From a virus (Duplodnaviria > Caudoviricetes): a stretch of 64,000 nucleotides of DNA. The notes below the pieces were generated by a model. It saw only the letters and a program-made list of their open reading frames with translations. It did not search any database and was not told the origin of the DNA. The stretch is taken from positions 1 to 64,000 of IMG/VR virus record IMGVR_UViG_3300031992_000031. One strand, written 5' to 3'. Shown in pieces: positions 22,990 through 60,846 of the stretch (position 1 is the stretch's first letter; each line of letters starts with the position of its first letter). A program made the position numbers and the translations under genes.

Positions 22990-23059
22990 ATAAGTAGAAA
23001 ATGAGAGTAAGGAATCTCATTTCTAAATAAAATTTCATAACATAAGGAGGTTATGAGGT

Positions 23060-23444: not shown

Positions 23445-23532
23445 AGCCCCGCGGTCCGTGGCGGACAGACGGTCTCTAAAACCGTGGCCTCTGAAGCAAA
23501 CGAAGTAGGTTCGATTCCTACCGGGGCTGCCA
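23445..23532 (+). tRNA. Amber suppressor tRNA, anticodon CUA (probably Gln)
   Basis: AGCCCCG/CGGGGCT acceptor + G-CCA; ACGGT-CTCTAAA-ACCGT anticodon arm; GTAGG-TTCGATT-CCTAC T arm. Confidence 0.85.
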
Positions 23533-25347: not shown

Positions 25348-26676
25348 ATGGCAATTGGCACCGGAGAAAAAATATTATATTCTGATTTAGCATCAAAGTA
25401 TAATAGTTTTAATTCTTTTATTGCTACATATGGAGGCGAAATTACTACCTTAGTATTGCCCTAGACTGGCTAGCCCGCACACGCGTCTGATATTAATAAT
25501 TTGAATGATAAAATTGAAGAATTTCAATTTGATACTTTTTTAAGTACTCAACCAACTTGGTGGGTAAGTGGTTCAGTTACTATTGGTGAATTGATTGCGG
25601 CATCAAACATGGACAATATAAATACTACTATAAGTAATTTTAGTAGAGTGCAATGCCGTAATGCTGATGCTAGACATTCTTATTCTACTAATAGTAATGC
25701 CTGTAATCCTTAGACATGTAGTACAGAAGCATGTTCGCATCAATGCACTGGATAGTCTTGTAGTCGTCAATGTAGTATAACATGTAGTCATACATGTACT
25801 GCTCAGGCATGTAGTCGTTAGTGTTCTATTACATGCAGTAATAAATGTACGGCTTAGGCTTGCGGTCGGACTTGTAGTATTACCTGCAGTCACAAATGCA
25901 CGGCTTAGGCGTGTGGTAGAACTTGTAGTATAACATGTAGTAATAAATGTACCGCTCAAGCTTGTGGTAGAACCTGTAGTATTACTTGTAGTAATAAATG
26001 TACTGCTTAGGCTTGCAGTAGAACCTGTAGTAGAACATGTAGTAATACATGTGCAGCTTAGGGTGTATGCAATAAAAACTGCAGTTAGGCTTGTGGCCAT
26101 GTTACTAATGGATCATGGAAATGTAATTCTTATGGCTCATATCGTGGCTATCAAAATTGTCCTAATGGAGCAAGAACTAATACATGTGGTGCATAGGCTT
26201 GCTCTCATGGAAGCAACTCTGTTGCTTGTAACAATTCTTCTCATTCATAGAGTGGGCATACACATGGCACAAATAGTAATGCTTGCAACAATTCTTCTCA
26301 TTCATAGGGTGGACATACACATGGTACAAATAGTAATGCGTGTAATAATTCGTCTCATTCATAGGGCGGACATACACACGGAACTAATAGTAATGCTTGC
26401 AACAATTCTTCTCATTCATAGGGCGGGCATACCCACGGAACTAACAGTAATTCCTGTAATAATTCTTCCCATACTCAAGGTGGGCATACTCATGGGACAA
26501 ATAATAATGCTTGTAATAATTCGTCTCATACCTAGGGCGGGCATACTCATGGAACAAATAATAATGCTTGTACATATAGTTCTCATAATAATACTAACTG
26601 TGCTCATAGTACGCACGGATAGACCTGTAAACATTAGACCTATATTGATATAAGTAATGCACATACTAATCTTTGA
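25348..26676 (+). CDS. Cys/His-rich repeat protein (442 aa), putative substrate of YcaO/radical SAM enzymes; TAG=Gln
   Basis: GAGGAG RBS; single frame with TAG alternating with CAG/CAA in repeat copies. Confidence 0.85.
25771..26060 (+). repeat. 51-nt tandem coding repeat (CSITCSNKCTAQACGRT, about 5-6 copies)
   Basis: Repeated TGTAGTATAACATGTAGT...TGTACTGCT(C/T)AGGC units. Confidence 0.85.
26227..26570 (+). repeat. 57-nt tandem coding repeat (CNNSSHSQGGHTHGTNSNA, about 6 copies)
   Basis: Repeated TGTAA(C/T)AATTC.TCTCATTCATAGGG.GG.CATAC.CA.GG.AC units. Confidence 0.85.
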
Positions 26677-36142: not shown

Positions 36143-36757
36143 GTAGTTTTGGTAGTATGCGCCGTTGTACCGCTCAGTGCCCGCACTGGTCGAGGTATTC
36201 TACCATATGAAACGGACTTCCCGCAGTAGGGTTATAATATACTGAGTGCTGGTCAGCGATGCGGAAAGCACTTAAAACACGGGCAGCTGACTTGCTGGTC
36301 ACAGAGGGTGTGTAGAAAGCAAGTAAAACACGGGTATGCCCAATGGGTCGTGTTTAATGAGCACCACCTTCGGATGTACACCGATCTCCAGTATGAGTAA
36401 AAACTACCGTTTGGGCTGCGTGAAACGCGCCGGGTCCACCGTGCGAATGCACAAGCACGCTCGTAAGTGCTGGGTTACGCTCCACCCGTGGGAAGTCCCC
36501 AAAGGAGGATGTACGAGAAATAGAGCTGCCGACGCCTCTACTGACGAGTATGCGTACCACGGGGCCACCGTATTCTTAAAACATTTCTTACGGTATATAA
36601 AGAAGAACTACTGACACATGGTTCGTGCCGCCAGGAAAACTTGACTTCTGCAGGAGTTGATAATAGCTAAGGGAAGTTATACGCTATTAAACCGCAAAGA
36701 GCACGCGGTATATAAAGAGAATGCTCTTGGCCGCAACTGCAAGGTGCGGCACTTTAT

Positions 36758-40295: not shown

Positions 40296-40620
40296 GGGGC
40301 TGAAATAGTATCGACAGGTATATGAAGTATTAAGGACACGGGTAGGCGGCGCACCTTACGCAGCAACCTAAAAGAAACGACGAATTTGATTTCGCACTAG
40401 CTGCTTAATTCACGCGGCTGCTTAAACGGCGAACCTAGCAATCGGTAATCGCCTGCGGCTCAGAGAAAGATTGCCGTTAGCACCAGTCTATTGCTCTCTG
40501 GCGAAACAAAGAGCATATTTGGTTTCAAGTTTGCTAGTTTCTCAAACTAGCTATCGTGTAAGTATTTCTTAATATGAATTATAGGCTGGACACGAGGGGC
40601 AGAACTCGTCAGCTCCACCA
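40296..40620 (+). ncRNA. ssrA: tmRNA
   Basis: GGGGCTG...TCGAC start, CAGCTCC-ACCA end with G3:U; internal tag ORF ...RNDEFDFALAA*. Confidence 0.9.
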
Positions 40621-44555: not shown

Positions 44556-44584
44556 TTGACAAAATTTCAAATTTATATTATAAT
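44556..44584 (+). promoter_or_regulatory. Sigma-A promoter
   Basis: TTGACA-17-TATAAT. Confidence 0.75.
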
Positions 44585-44689: not shown

Positions 44690-44763
44690 CTGGGTGTAGC
44701 GCAGTTTGGTAGCGTACTAGATTTGGGATCTAGGGGTCGAGAGTTCAAATCTCTCCACCCAGA
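44690..44763 (+). tRNA. tRNA-Pro(TGG)
   Basis: CTAGA-TTTGGGA-TCTAG. Confidence 0.85.
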
Positions 44764-44767
44764 CTTA

Positions 44768-44824
44768 TAGGCCATTACAGCAAACTTTGTAGAAATAGGA
44801 AATAATACAACAAACAATGGCCTA
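44768..44824 (+). ncRNA. CAGCAA stem element copy 5
   Basis: TAGGCCAT-TACAGCAAA...ATGGCCTA. Confidence 0.55.
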
Positions 44825-44944
44825 GCTTTATGAATATTTGCTCCATCTTGGGGCTAATAGATTGCCGCGTTAGGAACCTTATGGTGGAAGAGCCTTATTT
44901 GAAAGAGGTAGAGTAGTATCTACAACTCTTCCGCGGCGTTTTAT

Positions 44945-45099
44945 TTTTAGAACTGTAGGCTTAGAAGCAGCCATCAGCTAAAGAGTTTTCGTTTCTCCAT
45001 TCGTGCGAAATGTATTATGGGCTTACGATTATACGCCCCATAAGTATGATGTGCGATAGATAATAGAAAATGAAATTTGGCGTAATAGCACATCTAAAA
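44945..45099 (+). ncRNA. RNA resembling the 23S rRNA L11-binding domain (H43/H44)
   Basis: TGTAGGCTTAGAAGCAGCCATCA..TAAAGA...GCGTAATAGC.CA closed by TTTTAGA/TCTAAAA. Confidence 0.65.
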
Positions 45100-45100
45100 T

Positions 45101-45188
45101 GACACTATGGCCGAGTTGGTAAGGCGCTAACCTGCTAAGTTAAGGCCACTTGTAAAAGGGTGCCGAGGTTCGAATCCTCGTAGTGTCG
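45101..45188 (+). tRNA. tRNA-Ser(GCT)
   Basis: Loop CTGCTAA; long variable arm; G73. Confidence 0.8.
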
Positions 45189-45300
45189 CTTTGCGGTGGT
45201 GGAATAGGTAGACATTTGGGGCATGACACACGTAAAGAGGTATGCGAGGGCGTGAAGTCTGGGTGTGTCCTGTGAGGTGCAAATCCTCACCCGCATTTAT

Positions 45301-45457
45301 AGTCCCTTAGCGTAATGGTAGCGCAACGGACTTGTATGGGTCGTCTAGGTTGGAAGGCCGGCTCGGTGTATTAGAATACACAGATGAGAAGAAGTGAGTT
45401 CGATCCTCACCCCATGCATTGACTCCGTATGTGTTGGTCCGATTCCAACAGGGACTG
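45301..45457 (+). tRNA. tRNA-Gln(TTG) interrupted by an 86-nt tRNA-like insert in the anticodon
   Basis: AGTCCCT/AGGGACT-G; ACGGA-CTT[45334-45419]TGAC-TCCGT. Confidence 0.75.
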
Positions 45458-45496
45458 CTTTGAAACAATCTTATTTATTAAAGCTTAGGAGGAATT

Positions 45497-46114
45497 ATGT
45501 TAAATATTCTTAGTGTAGATATGGATTGGATTATGGAACCAAGTATTAATTTTTATAATAATCAAGTTTCTGATTAGAATGATTTTTTAGCTGAAAATGA
45601 TGAAAGAATTATTATACCTGCCGATTTAAAAAAATATGCCATGATTACTAAATTAATTTTTTCTTTATTGTCATCTTTACAATTAAAAGATATATTTATA
45701 GCAGAGGGGCATGAAGAAATATTTAAAGCTATTAATAAATGGCAGCTAAATGATAAGTTTAAAATTTATAATATAGATCATCATCATGATTGCGGTTATT
45801 TATATGATAATATATCATTACATAATCTAATTAATGAATGTACTTGCGCTAATTGGGTTCCATATGTTTATAAAAAATTTTCAACATTTGTAAAATACAT
45901 ATGGATTGGAAATAAAAATTCATTCCCATTAGATTCACAACTTAAATCCATTCTTCCAGATTACAATATTTATGATAATCTTGAAATATTAGATAATATA
46001 AAAATAGATAAAATTTTTATTTGCAAATCTCGTACTTGGATCCCAGTTGAATATCGTGAATTAATTGATAGTTTTACATATTCTATTATAAAAGCATTGG
46101 AAATGAGAAAGTAA
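45497..46114 (+). CDS. UPF0489-like (arginase/deacetylase-fold) protein; TAG=Gln
   Basis: MLNILSVDMDW...H..I...NIDHHHD...CANW; GGAGG RBS; one TAG. Confidence 0.6.
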
Positions 46115-48696: not shown

Positions 48697-48843
48697 CTTA
48701 AAATAAAATTTCTGGTATAATTATTATGAAAGATGAAACAGTATGGGATTATTCTGATTGCCAAATCGGACACCCATGTATAAATTGTATAAAAGAATGT
48801 ACCTTCCGACTTGACAAAGTTGTAGATGAAAAGGAGAAAAAAG

Positions 48844-50346
48844 ATGAACGAATTACTGAAAAATCTGAAAAAAGAATCTAATTACCGTTATACTGAAAAT
48901 GGCGCTCTTACTCATAAGACCACCTTTAATAAGGTGCTTGATATGTTTGGTATGGGTGGCGCGATGCGTAATCGCTCTGAGGATGACATTATTACAATGT
49001 TTAAGGGCGCTTATGAAGAAGAGCCCACGTTGGCTCTTCGCTGTTTGTTCTACCTGCGGGACGTGCGTGGAGGTCAAGGAGAACGGCGCTTCTTCCGTAT
49101 CATCCTCCATTGGATGGGCAACTATATGACTGATGAGGTTGAACACCTTATTCCTATGATTAGTGAATATGGCCGCTGGGATGATCTCTTTGAACTCTTC
49201 GGCACTAAGTGTGAGCCTGCGATGCTTGGATATATTCACTATACCATCTCTAAGAACGAAGACCATCTTATTTATAAATGGCTTCCTTCTATCAACGCCT
49301 CCTCTCGCACTACTAAATCTCGTGGTCGCAAGATTGCCACCGAATTTAATATAACTGAACGCGAGTATCGTAAGATGTTGACTGAAGGCCGCAAGGCTTG
49401 TAATCTGGTCGAATCTCTGATGAGTCAGAATCATTGGGATCAGATTGCCTTTGATAAGTTGCCTTCCCGCGCGGGCCTTCTGTATAAGAGAGCATTTATG
49501 CGCCGTGAGGAAACTAAGGCACGGTATGCCGATTTTATGAGCAATGAAAAGACCAAGGTCAATGCTTCGGTACTTAACCCTGTAGAAATTGCTCATCAGA
49601 TCTTCAACTATAACAGTTGGAATCGTCCGAGCGATACCGAGCGCAGCGCTTGGCAGAAATACTGGGACAACTTGAAGGACTATTATAATGGCCGTGAAGA
49701 ACCCGGTATTGCTGTCGTAGATGTTAGTGGCAGTATGTATGGTCAGCCTATTGAAGCCGCAGTCTCCATGGGCGCATATATTGCCGAACGTGGTAAAGGC
49801 CCTTTCCAGAATCATTTCATTACGTTCAGCAGCAACCCTGAACTTGTAGAGTTTAGTGGTGTGGACGTGTATGATAAGTTTATGCGCGCGAGATCGGCTG
49901 AATGGGGCGGAAGCACTAATATCGAAGCCGTTTTCAATTTGCTTCTTGATACTGCTCGTCGGAATCATGTATCAAAAGAAGATATGCCCAAGACTCTTTA
50001 TATCTTCAGTGATATGGAGTTCAATGGATGTATCACTAGTGGGCCCGTATCTTACGATCGTTGGGCTTCTTCTGGCCGTCCTCTTAGTGAGTGTCAGATC
50101 AATACGGTCATTGAAGAACAGGCTCGTAAATGGCGGCAGTATGGTTATCAGATTCCTCGTGTGGTATTCTGGAATCTTGATGCTCGTCATGATAATATCC
50201 CTGCTATCGGAGATGGATTCTCCTATGTAAGTGGATTCTCCATGAACATGGTAGAATGTATTCTCTCTGGCAAAGATGGATATGACCTTTGTCTAGAAAA
50301 ACTGAATAGTGAACGCTATCAGCCAATCTCTAGTGCCCATAAATAA
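48844..50346 (+). CDS. DUF2828 (TROVE/Ro-like + vWA) protein
   Basis: TENGA...RDVRGGQGER...YGRWDDL...KWLPS...VDVSGSM...FSDMEF...VFWNL...VSGFS. Confidence 0.8.
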   Translation: MNELLKNLKKESNYRYTENGALTHKTTFNKVLDMFGMGGAMRNRSEDDIITMFKGAYEEEPTLALRCLFYLRDVRGGQGERRFFRIILHWMGNYMTDEVEHLIPMISEYGRWDDLFELFGTKCEPAMLGYIHYTISKNEDHLIYKWLPSINASSRTTKSRGRKIATEFNITEREYRKMLTEGRKACNLVESLMSQNHWDQIAFDKLPSRAGLLYKRAFMRREETKARYADFMSNEKTKVNASVLNPVEIAHQIFNYNSWNRPSDTERSAWQKYWDNLKDYYNGREEPGIAVVDVSGSMYGQPIEAAVSMGAYIAERGKGPFQNHFITFSSNPELVEFSGVDVYDKFMRARSAEWGGSTNIEAVFNLLLDTARRNHVSKEDMPKTLYIFSDMEFNGCITSGPVSYDRWASSGRPLSECQINTVIEEQARKWRQYGYQIPRVVFWNLDARHDNIPAIGDGFSYVSGFSMNMVECILSGKDGYDLCLEKLNSERYQPISSAHK

Positions 50347-57877: not shown

Positions 57878-57948
57878 TAAAAATACATATCTTTAAGGAG
57901 AAAGCCACTCTTATTTGAGTGGTTTATTTATTATATGGAGGTGAAATC

Positions 57949-60846
57949 ATGGCGATTAATAAAGACTTGTATAAAGGCACATTTAAAAAATATAAAAATT
58001 TAATGTTTTATGATGGTCATGAAGTAGATTATTTTTACTTTTTATCTCTATTAACTTATACAGATAATGATCCAGATTATAATTCACTAGCTAACGAAAT
58101 TGTTATGCAGGGCGCCGCAGCATTAGCTAAGCCGCCATTATTCAGAGAAACTAATAGTAGCGAGATGCCAGCTTTAATGCAATTGCAAAAAGCTTTAGAA
58201 TTTTTATAGAAAGCGGTATAGTATGAGCGTACAAACGAAATTCAATATTTTAAATAGAAATTTGCCATCTTAAAAGATAGTTTTTCTGCTGAAGAAATGA
58301 AAGAAATTAAAGAAATTACACAGTTAGAAAAATTATTCGCAGACGGCGGAAAAGGCAAATTCGATTATAATTATATGATAGTATTAATTAATATATTAGA
58401 ATAGGGTTTAAAGTAGACAAAAACAGTAGCACAATATGAAGAGAATCGCATTACAACTATTGCATAGTAGATGGCAAAAATTAAACAATCACGTAGAAAA
58501 TAGCTAGATGGATTATGGAAAAAACAAAATGGCTTAGGAAAAAATGATACTATTAATTAGAATGATCCTAAATATATCGAATATATTAAAAAAGCCAATA
58601 AAAAATTTCATCGAAATATTGAAGTTTCATATGTAACACACGGTAATTTATCTTCTCCTCTTGATGATAAAAAACGTAAACGTATTTGGGGTGCAAAAAA
58701 ATATTTAGCAGATATTCCAAAAACAGTAGATGTTAAAGTAGGAGAGTGGATTACATCGCATATTCAAGAAATTTTTGAATCAGAAATATATATGAAACAA
58801 TTTGAAGAATTAGCTTCAGAATATTTATCCACTGGAAAAGCAAACACTTCTACTGTTCGAGAAATGCTAGTAAAATCAATAATCAATGACGGTGTAAAAC
58901 ATACGGTTGAAATTCTTGAAGGGGCTTATAAAGAGTTACCAACAGATGAATTTATTAAAACATTAGAAGAACAAATTCAAGAAACACGCGAATATAAAAT
59001 TTCTGGCTATTATTCTAATTTTGGACAATATGGTCGTCATTTAGATTTTTTTGACTCTAAAACATTAAAAAATGGACAAGAAGTCGCGGATGGTCTATAT
59101 GATGCATATAGTAATTTAATTAAAGAATTAACTAAGACAAACCATAAACGAACTAAAGAAGAAACACAGCTCATGGCCGCTGTCAAATAGCGTGGACATT
59201 TACAAACATACACTCGTATGATTTCTTTAATTAATAAATTAGAGTCCGCAGAAAGAAAATGGGATAAGTGGCAACAAGATATTGCCTCAGGTCGCAGAAA
59301 GCAAGATAAAATGACACAAATTAATTTAGGATCAGACGGATATGGTGGAGACGTAATTGTACAAGTAAAAATTACTGCTAAGGGTGTAGAATTTCTAGGA
59401 GAATATGAATCACAAGATAGCGGGCAAGTATTAAACAGTGCATTGAATAGAACCTCTTTAATGAGAAAGGTTGGCAACGGTAGAACAAAGGCTACTACAA
59501 TTAAAGGAGCTGTTACAGGATTAAAAACAAAAATGAGTCATAGTTTAAGAAATGATTTATCAACTTCTATCGCATTTATCATGGCAAATCCTAAAAATAA
59601 TAGAACATATGAGCAAGTTACAACTGCATTTGAAAAAGCCTTAACAGGATTAAAACTATCCGTAGGCGGCCCAAAATTATCAGAAATCGCTCCGGGTATA
59701 TTATAGGCAACAATACAAGGTACATTAGACGTACATCATCCAGGCTCAATAAATAGACGTAATGATATGATTACGATTACACTTCAATATAATAATATTC
59801 ATTTAGAATCAACATTAACAGAGATTATGAATCTACGCGCAGAAGAATTGGTAGATAGATTAGATCCAGAAATAGCAAATATATAGAAAAACTATATTAC
59901 AGATTTTGAACACAAGTTTTATCAAAAAATGAGTAAACTTAAAAGTACTGATGCAAACTATAATAGTTTAGCAGAAAATGAAAAAATCTGGTTTGAATAC
60001 TATCAAGAATAGTAGAAACGTTTAAAAGATATTTAGGAATTAGGAACCGAACTTGATAGTGAATGGGGTCAATATGTAGAAAATGCTAGAAAAGAAGGGC
60101 GATCTGAAGAAGAAATTAATGCACAGAGAATAACCATTTTAGAATCATTAAAAGATAGTTTCTTCATCTCTGATACTATGAAAACATACAATTAGTATCA
60201 AAATAATTTAGGCTTTGGTGGCGCAAGTTTAGGAGCAAGCGTAGAAGCGCAACTTGCTAATTTAAATACATTATTTACAAAAGCCGGATGTCCCATTTAG
60301 GACTCGGATTTATTATGGTTACGCAGTGCTATAATCAATTGTTCTCCTGTTAGCATCGTTGGTGAAAAAAATAAAAACATAATAGAAAATTATTTAAGTT
60401 CTATGGCGGCATTAGCAATGTTTGATGAAGGCAGTGCTGAGGCTCAAATTATTGATGATTTAAACAAAAAAGTAGAGGAGCGAGTAAAGACTAGCCCAAA
60501 TATTTTACATTTATACCGAGTAAATGGTATTTTTGTGCCAGGATCCGTTGTATTGTCGCGTACGATAGAAGAATTATCTAAATGTTTAGATGCTGGTACG
60601 CGCTCTTTAGATATGACGTTATCCAAACGTGGTGCTGGCGTTACAATTATTAATACGATGAATGAAGGATTAATTCCTAACAGGTCTACTACCAGTAAAC
60701 GTTATCCCGTGGAGGATACGGATCCATGGGGAACAGTAGCCAGTGCTACTGATTCACATGTAAAATTAAAAATAATGTTTTTAGCTGGTTTATTAGATAT
60801 AGTAAATGATATGAATAAAATTATGGGTAATATACAAGCACCGTAA
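57949..60846 (+). CDS. Large (965 aa) hypothetical protein, probably virion-associated; TAG=Gln
   Basis: ORFs 57919, 58792, 59218 and 60403 in one frame broken only by TAG. Confidence 0.75.

Follow-up and report, generated by a model that had tools for sequence, protein, structure and literature searches.

The window analysed here, a 64,000-nt stretch from the start of the virus record IMGVR_UViG_3300031992_000031, carries at 44945-45100 on the plus strand an element that copies a piece of bacterial 23S rRNA, namely the top of H42 together with H43 and H44, the helices of the GTPase-associated center (GAC). The predicted RNA is 155 nt long, and the element is flanked by two tRNA genes in what is a rumen-type phage. 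On the plus strand the unit reads, in order, promoter, tRNA-Pro, element, tRNA-Ser. Its head is a sigma-70-like site (44556-44584, TTGACA-17-TATAAT), a promoter by consensus match only, agreeing at 12 of 12 positions. tRNA gene calls place tRNA-Pro(UGG) at 44690-44764 and tRNA-Ser(GCU) at 45101-45189, the latter beginning 2 nt past the last pair of the closing stem of the element, and no terminator-like site was found between the promoter-like site and position 45700.

The letters on which the initial annotation had based its reading of this stretch were located in the window, the H43 letters GGCTTAGAAGCAGCCATC at 44958-44975 and the H44 letters GCGTAATAGC at 45080-45089. A closing stem of 7 bp (P1), which it had also described, pairs TTTTAGA (44945-44951) with TCTAAAA (45093-45099), or UUUUAGA with UCUAAAA in the RNA, and its 5' strand stands for the top of H42 (about 1049-1055). 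H43 (1057-1081) with the 1067 loop UUAGAAGCAG occupies 44953-44977, placed there by a partial Rfam alignment and by covariation in the family described below. The junction 1082-1086 (CUAAA) and the 5' strand of H44 (G1087-A-G-U1090) follow at 44978-44986, assigned from the sequence and from family pair counts. An insert measured at 93 nt (44987-45079), where about 90 nt of extra sequence had been estimated, then separates ...AAAGAGT from GCGTAATAGC at a site that corresponds to U1090/G1091. The H44 hairpin itself (G1091-C1100, loop GUAAUA) and the succeeding A1101 (U in real rRNA), C1102 and A1103 take up 45080-45092, an assignment from sequence and family counts. From 5' to 3' the RNA reads UUUUAGA-AC-UGUAGGCUUAGAAGCAGCCAUCAG-CUAAA-GAGU-[93 nt]-GCGUAAUAGC-ACA-UCUAAAA.

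When set against the 23S consensus of about 52 Bacillota genomes (GGCTTAGAAGCAGCCA[TC]CATT.AAAGAGTGCGTAATAGCTCAC in DNA letters, GGCUUAGAAGCAGCCA[UC]CAUU.AAAGAGUGCGUAAUAGCUCAC in RNA letters), the element is Bacillota 23S up to U1090 and resumes as such at G1091, with both loops identical to the consensus. The proposed likeness to H43/H44 is therefore borne out on either side of the insert except at U1101->A, and the H43 hairpin (1067 loop) and H44 hairpin (1095 loop) keep the order and spacing of the 23S GAC. Three departures distinguish the element from real 23S: the 93-nt insert, which ends in UUUG; the change of U1101 to A; and the replacement of the remainder of H42 by a closing stem of its own. 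The window copy also has a C.A mismatch at 1082-1086, where its nearest relatives have C-G.

A search with the Rfam model RF02541 detected no contiguous LSU rRNA in the whole 133-kb record, in keeping with the earlier remark that no other rRNA lies nearby, and what flanks the element is tRNA genes. The H43 18-mer occurs once in that record and, with up to three mismatches allowed, once in the window, where shuffles lead one to expect 0.03 occurrences. Rfam searches with the element returned nothing at gathering score and nothing at E values up to 10 apart from a weak partial match to LSU_rRNA_bacteria (11.6 bits, E 0.35), in which 44953-44977 aligned to the H43 positions 1098-1122 of the model.

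The element belongs to a family. A motif of this kind with a variable insertion, which the initial annotation had suggested searching for in phage genomes, recurs in more than 190 related elements of IMG/VR, with inserts of 26-392 nt at a site that is constant at 1090/1091. Scans with both exact anchors and a gap of 60-150 nt recovered 28 loci, scans anchored on one half recovered at least 118 loci each, and the 198 elements (148 unique cores) counted here were taken from among the matches listed in these scans. No insert of 30-59 nt was found with both exact anchors, and a looser extraction gave a few short ones. The window copy bears all four marks of the family: the self-closing P1, the insert at 1090/1091, the UUUG linker and A1101.

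Pairing is preserved across the 148 unique cores while the letters change. All four Watson-Crick types (AU, UA, GC and CG) occur in the closing stem (1049-1055/1104-1110), and five of the seven P1 pairs have compensatory changes within the subfamily of the window. The 1057-1081 pair is AU in 104 cores and CG in 26, 1058-1080 is UA in 55, GC in 44, AU in 26 and CG in 7, and the GAC-specific pair 1082-1086 is UA in 65, CG in 42 and AU in 18. U1060 and A1088 occur together in 131 of the 148 cores, and U1090-A1101 takes the form UA in 130, with A1101 itself present in 84 of 86 members. The bases of the tertiary core (G1059, U1060, A1088, G1071, C1072, A1077, A1084/85, G1093.A1098 and R1056.A1103) are nearly invariant. 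This covariation places the fold under selection across the family, and the description of the element as a stand-alone, conserved and covarying imitation of the uL11/thiostrepton domain is well supported.

Folding of the single sequence gave a z of -1.40, which is not significant, and a minimum-energy fold that differs from the GAC fold. The minimum-energy fold pairs UAAA with UUUG; such a pairing cannot account for the covariation of 1082 with 1086 (A1082 with U1086 would break it), and this candidate structure was rejected.

Constraint is uneven within the copied domain. In sets free of anchor bias the loop tips are kept at lower rates (A1067 in 88 per cent, G1068 in 87 per cent, A1070 in 81 per cent and A1096 in 77 per cent), whereas these four bases are invariant in the roughly 52 Bacillota 23S sequences. 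The contrast between a near-invariant core and variable tips indicates that selection bears most on the fold and the core and less on the tips, the contact sites of factors and thiopeptides; this fits binding by the C-terminal domain of uL11. Alternatively, the loop tips may be evolving under conflict.

The initial annotation was right about a stand-alone mimic of the GAC, a description that can now be extended to a conserved and covarying domain, but it passed over the roughly 90 nt between the two halves as mere extra sequence, and this stretch is itself a conserved, covarying arm. The weaker conservation of the loop tips relative to real rRNA had likewise escaped it. The subfamily to which the window copy belongs has about 20 unique members, and an alignment of 16 sequences (A1) was scored against a proposed structure that combines the core (P1, H43, the 1082-1086 pair and H44) with the three helices Pa, Pb and Pc of the arm. 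In A1 92.2 per cent of cells are paired, as against at most 47 per cent when the partners are slid, and 18 pairs are altered on both sides, with such changes in each of Pa, Pb and Pc. By this alignment the arm extends over 44987-45075, between U1090 and G1091, and comprises Pa (44987-44990/45072-45075 and 44992-44996/45065-45069), Pb (45001-45006/45051-45056) and the Pc hairpin (45015-45021/45037-45043). Pb and Pc are separated by a purine-rich internal loop, GAAAUGUA opposite GUAUGAU (45007-45014/45044-45050), that is invariant in the A1 subfamily; the Pb stem of the window copy is weaker than that of its relatives. The UUUG linker that follows the arm (45076-45079) is a signature of the family, present as UUU(G/A) in at least 94 per cent of unbiased members and lacking a counterpart in real 23S. 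Both k-turn and sarcin-ricin motifs were considered by hand for the internal loop and dropped, because the register of the two strands is wrong for them and more distant members have AGUG where AGUA would be expected.

Two motifs recur among the arms. One, GCGAAAUG...UGAUGUG, is present in 21 unique inserts, and 28 unique members from diverse other lineages carry a CACCCC-hairpin-GGUAAGG motif at a distance of 15 nt (14-16) from the 3' end of the insert, its hairpin having 3 bp and a GNRA-like or UAAC loop (L002, L010, L019, L026, L039, L169 from phage pf16, and 22 more). Neither motif is present in 99 of 146 unique inserts. A derivation of the arm from elsewhere in rRNA finds no statistical footing: blastn-short matches of the 146 unique inserts to two whole rrn operons were at the level of shuffled sequences, and 149 of 300 shuffles aligned to Salmonella 23S as well as the window insert did at its best. 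The likeness of the arm motif GUGCGAAAUG...AAGUAUGAU to 23S around 1247-1272 (GUGCGAAUGCUGACAUAAGUAACGAU) was seen by eye and is not significant, the Bacillota letters there being GAGAAUGCCGGUAUGAGUAACGA. An 11-mer of the CACCCC motif, ACCCCGUAACU, is shared with 23S around 1680, probably by chance.

Most carriers are large phages, of about 90-430 kb, and they come from many environments. Three cultured phages contain members that are unannotated in their records: Cronobacter phage GAP32 (at about 289,511-289,761), Pseudomonas putida phage pf16 (between tRNA-Asn and tRNA-Pro) and Aeromonas phage 4_4572 (36 nt before tRNA-Met); CBB, XaC1, XacN1 and others are probable carriers. A family-specific 17-mer matched 57 times in 185,579 species genomes; most of these matches are chance occurrences inside genes, and about 18 are true elements, which probably lie in prophages. 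Bacterial isolates with an element include Flintibacter muris DSM 110149 (a prophage-like copy), Clostridiaceae strain 9 and 'Bacterium D16-76', and host 23S was recovered from only one of five draft genomes of prophage carriers. The present record, 75 per cent complete, has a single copy. Its close relative IMGVR_UViG_3300021399_000004 (169 kb, complete) has two diverged paralogues, L003 and L083, one with the UUUUAGA closing stem of the window copy and the other with a UUGUGG stem.

The tRNA setting of the window is common to much of the family. A tRNA gene lies within 300 nt of 121 of the 198 elements and within 20 nt of 70, and in 119 of these 121 cases element and tRNA share a strand. No neighboring protein family recurs at more than 13 loci. 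The RNA-binding domain of uL11 (PF00298) was detected in none of 40 carrier phage records, 27 of which are at least 90 per cent complete.

The C-terminal domain of uL11 recognizes the GAC fold, and the free 58-nt fragment 1051-1108 reportedly binds both L11 and thiostrepton, as in the structures credited to Draper, Wimberly and Conn. Given that the family keeps what the GAC fold needs and that its carriers are without uL11, the simplest mechanism would be an RNA that binds host uL11 off the ribosome and acts as a sink, for uL11 or for something directed at the GAC. The explanation that we favor, with a confidence slightly better than even, is that the element encodes a stable, non-coding, tRNA-processed RNA that imitates the GAC off the ribosome, binds the uL11 of the host and serves as a sink either for uL11 or for a factor or toxin directed at the GAC.

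Expression, processing, uL11 binding and the decoy effect are all things that we infer in this mechanism. tRNA-Pro, the mimic and tRNA-Ser would be made as one transcript from the promoter-like site, and the mimic would be cut out by the enzymes that process tRNAs; RNase P, in trimming the 5' end of tRNA-Ser, would define the 3' terminus of the mimic. The two ends of the RNA would fold into a self-closed copy of the GAC (the top of H42, H43 and H44), while the middle would project as a fourth arm from the point between U1090 and G1091. The free RNA would then bind host uL11 through the copied fold, and the naked RNA or the resulting RNP could sequester uL11, or else a factor or toxin aimed at the GAC. 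Some features sit less easily with this picture. A plain uL11 sponge gives the conserved arm and the UUUG linker nothing to do, and simple sponge models in general account neither for these two nor for A1101. An additional helix at 1090/1091 might upset the tertiary core centered on A1088, and the variable loop tips count against strict imitation of the factor surface, which would not tolerate them.

The idea of a decoy that titrates L11 or a defense protein targeting rRNA was already part of the initial annotation, and it appears plausible on three grounds: none of the 40 carriers has a uL11 of its own, the element sits in a tRNA operon and not ahead of a ribosomal-protein gene, and a toxin directed at H44 exists. 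That toxin, Tre23, ADP-ribosylates H44 nucleotides 1095-1098 and blocks the GTPase of EF-G (PMC8661411). A wider form of the proposal, to which we give somewhat less than an even chance, is that a tRNA-operon copy of the GAC in large phages of many hosts, as an RNP with host uL11, diverts an activity directed at the GAC, which might be an immunity toxin that modifies or cuts rRNA, stringent signalling of the RelA type or a translational GTPase; in that case these would be viral RNAs of a new class, counterfeits of a functional center of the ribosome rather than of a tRNA or an mRNA.

Several known systems resemble the element in part. The closest is the 23S GAC itself (top of H42, H43 and H44; 1051-1108 in E. 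coli; the 58-nt uL11/thiostrepton domain), which has the same helices, loops (UUAGAAGCAG and GUAAUA) and junction, and whose 1082-1086 pair, U1060/A1088, G1071/C1072, G1093.A1098 and R1056.A1103 are largely kept across the family. In contrast to it, the mimic lies outside rRNA and is closed by a short stem of free sequence, it has an arm of 26-392 nt and a UUUG linker at 1090/1091 and A in place of U1101, and its tips at 1067, 1068, 1070 and 1096 vary where those of the real 23S sampled are invariant. The leaders of ribosomal-protein operons (L1, L10(L12)4, S8 and S15) likewise copy a ribosomal-protein binding site outside the ribosome, but they are cis-acting parts of the mRNA of their own protein and reproduce a small motif only, whereas the mimic is an RNA in its own right, belongs to the tRNA operon of a phage that lacks a uL11 gene, and reproduces a whole tertiary domain. 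The synthetic RNA 1051-1108 of ribosome-in-pieces work on the thiostrepton region, which Munishkin and Wool reportedly found in 1997 to fold as a free fragment and to bind L11, thiostrepton and EF-G in vitro, offers a biochemical precedent for a mimic off the ribosome, but it is a laboratory construct and the element is a natural gene with an arm.

Phage tRNA arrays with their tmRNA, GOLLD, ROOL and Y-RNA-like RNAs provide the same habitat and strand as the mimic, and co-transcription and processing with the tRNAs are probable; GOLLD and ROOL are likewise known to travel with phage tRNAs (PMC5737381). The content of the mimic differs from all of these in being an rRNA domain and not a tRNA-like or large multimeric RNA, with no relation to them in Rfam at gathering score. 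Full-text literature searches, which included the Breaker-lab paper on 224 motifs and the paper on Tre23, yielded no description of such a phage RNA, and we found no described counterpart of this RNA class in the literature or in Rfam.

It is possible that uL11 is not needed at all. The mimic could be a surplus H43/H44 target for an enzyme, from the host or from a competitor, that modifies or cuts the GAC, so that the ribosomes are spared; this reading overlaps with the one we favor, and on its own we consider it unlikely. Tre23 demonstrates that a toxin with its target in the GAC, at H44 nucleotides 1095-1098, exists (PMC8661411), and the position of the element within tRNA arrays, a classic locus of phage counter-measures, its spread among large phages of many hosts and the presence of two diverged copies in some of them would all suit a decoy. 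A parallel is found in the phage tRNAs that replace those hit by anticodon nucleases. However, the very nucleotides struck by Tre23 (1095-1097) are the most variable in the mimic, which is odd for a bait unless there is an arms race, and ribosomes would far outnumber any likely decoy unless expression were very high. We know of no anti-phage defense system that is aimed at the GAC.

The uL11 sink, as the favored explanation, must also be weighed against a reading in which the copied domain is only a support. Here the GAC fold would be a compact, nuclease-resistant platform, perhaps stabilized by the abundant uL11, and the variable arm with its lineage-specific motifs would do the work. Inserts that range from 26 to 392 nt at a single fixed site, arms that are conserved and covarying within lineages, and the two recurrent motifs (in 21 unique inserts and 28 unique members, respectively) are what such a platform might be expected to display. 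The 99 of 146 unique inserts that have neither motif, so that no arm feature is universal, and the occurrence of very short inserts (26-29 nt) speak against it, as does the nearly letter-perfect preservation of the core, down to exposed loop bases that a mere scaffold could do without. We judge this reading to be a little more doubtful still than a decoy independent of uL11.

That the element is a cis-regulatory leader which mimics rRNA to control a downstream gene, in the way of ribosomal-protein operon leaders, seems very improbable. In two close relatives the arrangement would allow it: in L009 (7253-7429) and L012 (1151-1330) tRNA-Ser is replaced by a Shine-Dalgarno sequence and a conserved ORF of 58-59 aa (MEDKL.../MDDKL...) that starts about 10 nt after the mimic. 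That ORF has no ribosomal match and does not recur as a neighbor across the family, the next gene is a tRNA in the window (tRNA-Ser) and at most other loci, and a uL11 gene, sought as PF00298, is absent from all 40 carrier records. That the element is a functionless remnant of host 23S rDNA picked up by the phage, and perhaps split by an insertion, is hardly credible even though true rRNA scraps can occur in phage records, since hundreds of members with compensatory changes in unrelated phages, a constant insertion site and signatures missing from real rRNA (A1101, the UUUG linker and the self-closing P1) mark the element as something other than a chance fragment. An example of such a scrap is the 23S-like stretch of Paenibacillus phage Pd_22F (MZ092003.1, about 83,976-84,050; L273), which was not accepted as a member, being contiguous, insert-free and bordered by real rRNA flanks; it lies near the end of the record and is host DNA or a true rRNA scrap.

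If the uL11 sink or the wider proposal built on it is true, phages would have, in addition to tRNAs, tmRNA and ribosomal proteins, a further means to manipulate or protect translation, namely a counterfeit part of the ribosome itself. It would also point to host activities directed at the GAC that are still unrecognized, whether defense toxins or control of the stringent response, and it would supply a natural, compact uL11- and thiopeptide-binding RNA with a permissive insertion site that could be used as a scaffold. The cultured carriers pf16, GAP32 and Aeromonas phage 4_4572 make the idea directly testable.

Further structured RNAs surround the element. The spacer between tRNA-Pro and the mimic (44765-44940) folds with a z of -2.45 and holds two modules, a stem AGGCCAUUA...UAAUGGCCU around CAGCAA at 44768-44823 and, at 44864-44938, a GCCGCG...CGCGGC multi-stem followed by a U-run, which is common to L009. 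Directly after tRNA-Ser, 45192-45296 is tRNA-like, with acceptor-like ends and a T-arm GAGGTGCAAATCCTCAC; ARAGORN and Rfam make no call there, and it may be a further interrupted or long-arm tRNA. The next stretch, 45301-45458, is a tRNA gene with an 86-nt insert in its anticodon loop, and cmscan gives that insert itself a tRNA-like score (23 bits at 45334-45418); when introns are allowed, ARAGORN reads the gene as tRNA-Thr(UGU) with the intron at position 35/36. A 511-aa protein of Ro60/TROVE-like architecture (DUF2828, DUF7788 and vWA; 48811-50346) is encoded 3.7 kb downstream of the RNA cluster. DUF2828 was rejected as an obligatory partner of the mimic, as only 11 of 26 phage records with a mimic contain the family.

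Many long ORFs of the window read through TAG, such as 57919-60846 with 17 TAGs and 25348-26676 with 18. With TAG decoded, the combined length of all ORFs of 100 aa or more in the whole window grows from 15.6k to 26.6k aa, and the tRNA at 23445-23532 is a suppressor with the anticodon CUA. Three RNAs score above the Rfam gathering threshold, cow-rumen-4 (22994-23056, 78.5 bits), cow-rumen-3 (36345-36440, 96.4 bits) and tmRNA (40296-40620, 49 bits), and they fit both a rumen phage and the very high density of RNAs at about 29.7-45.5 kb.
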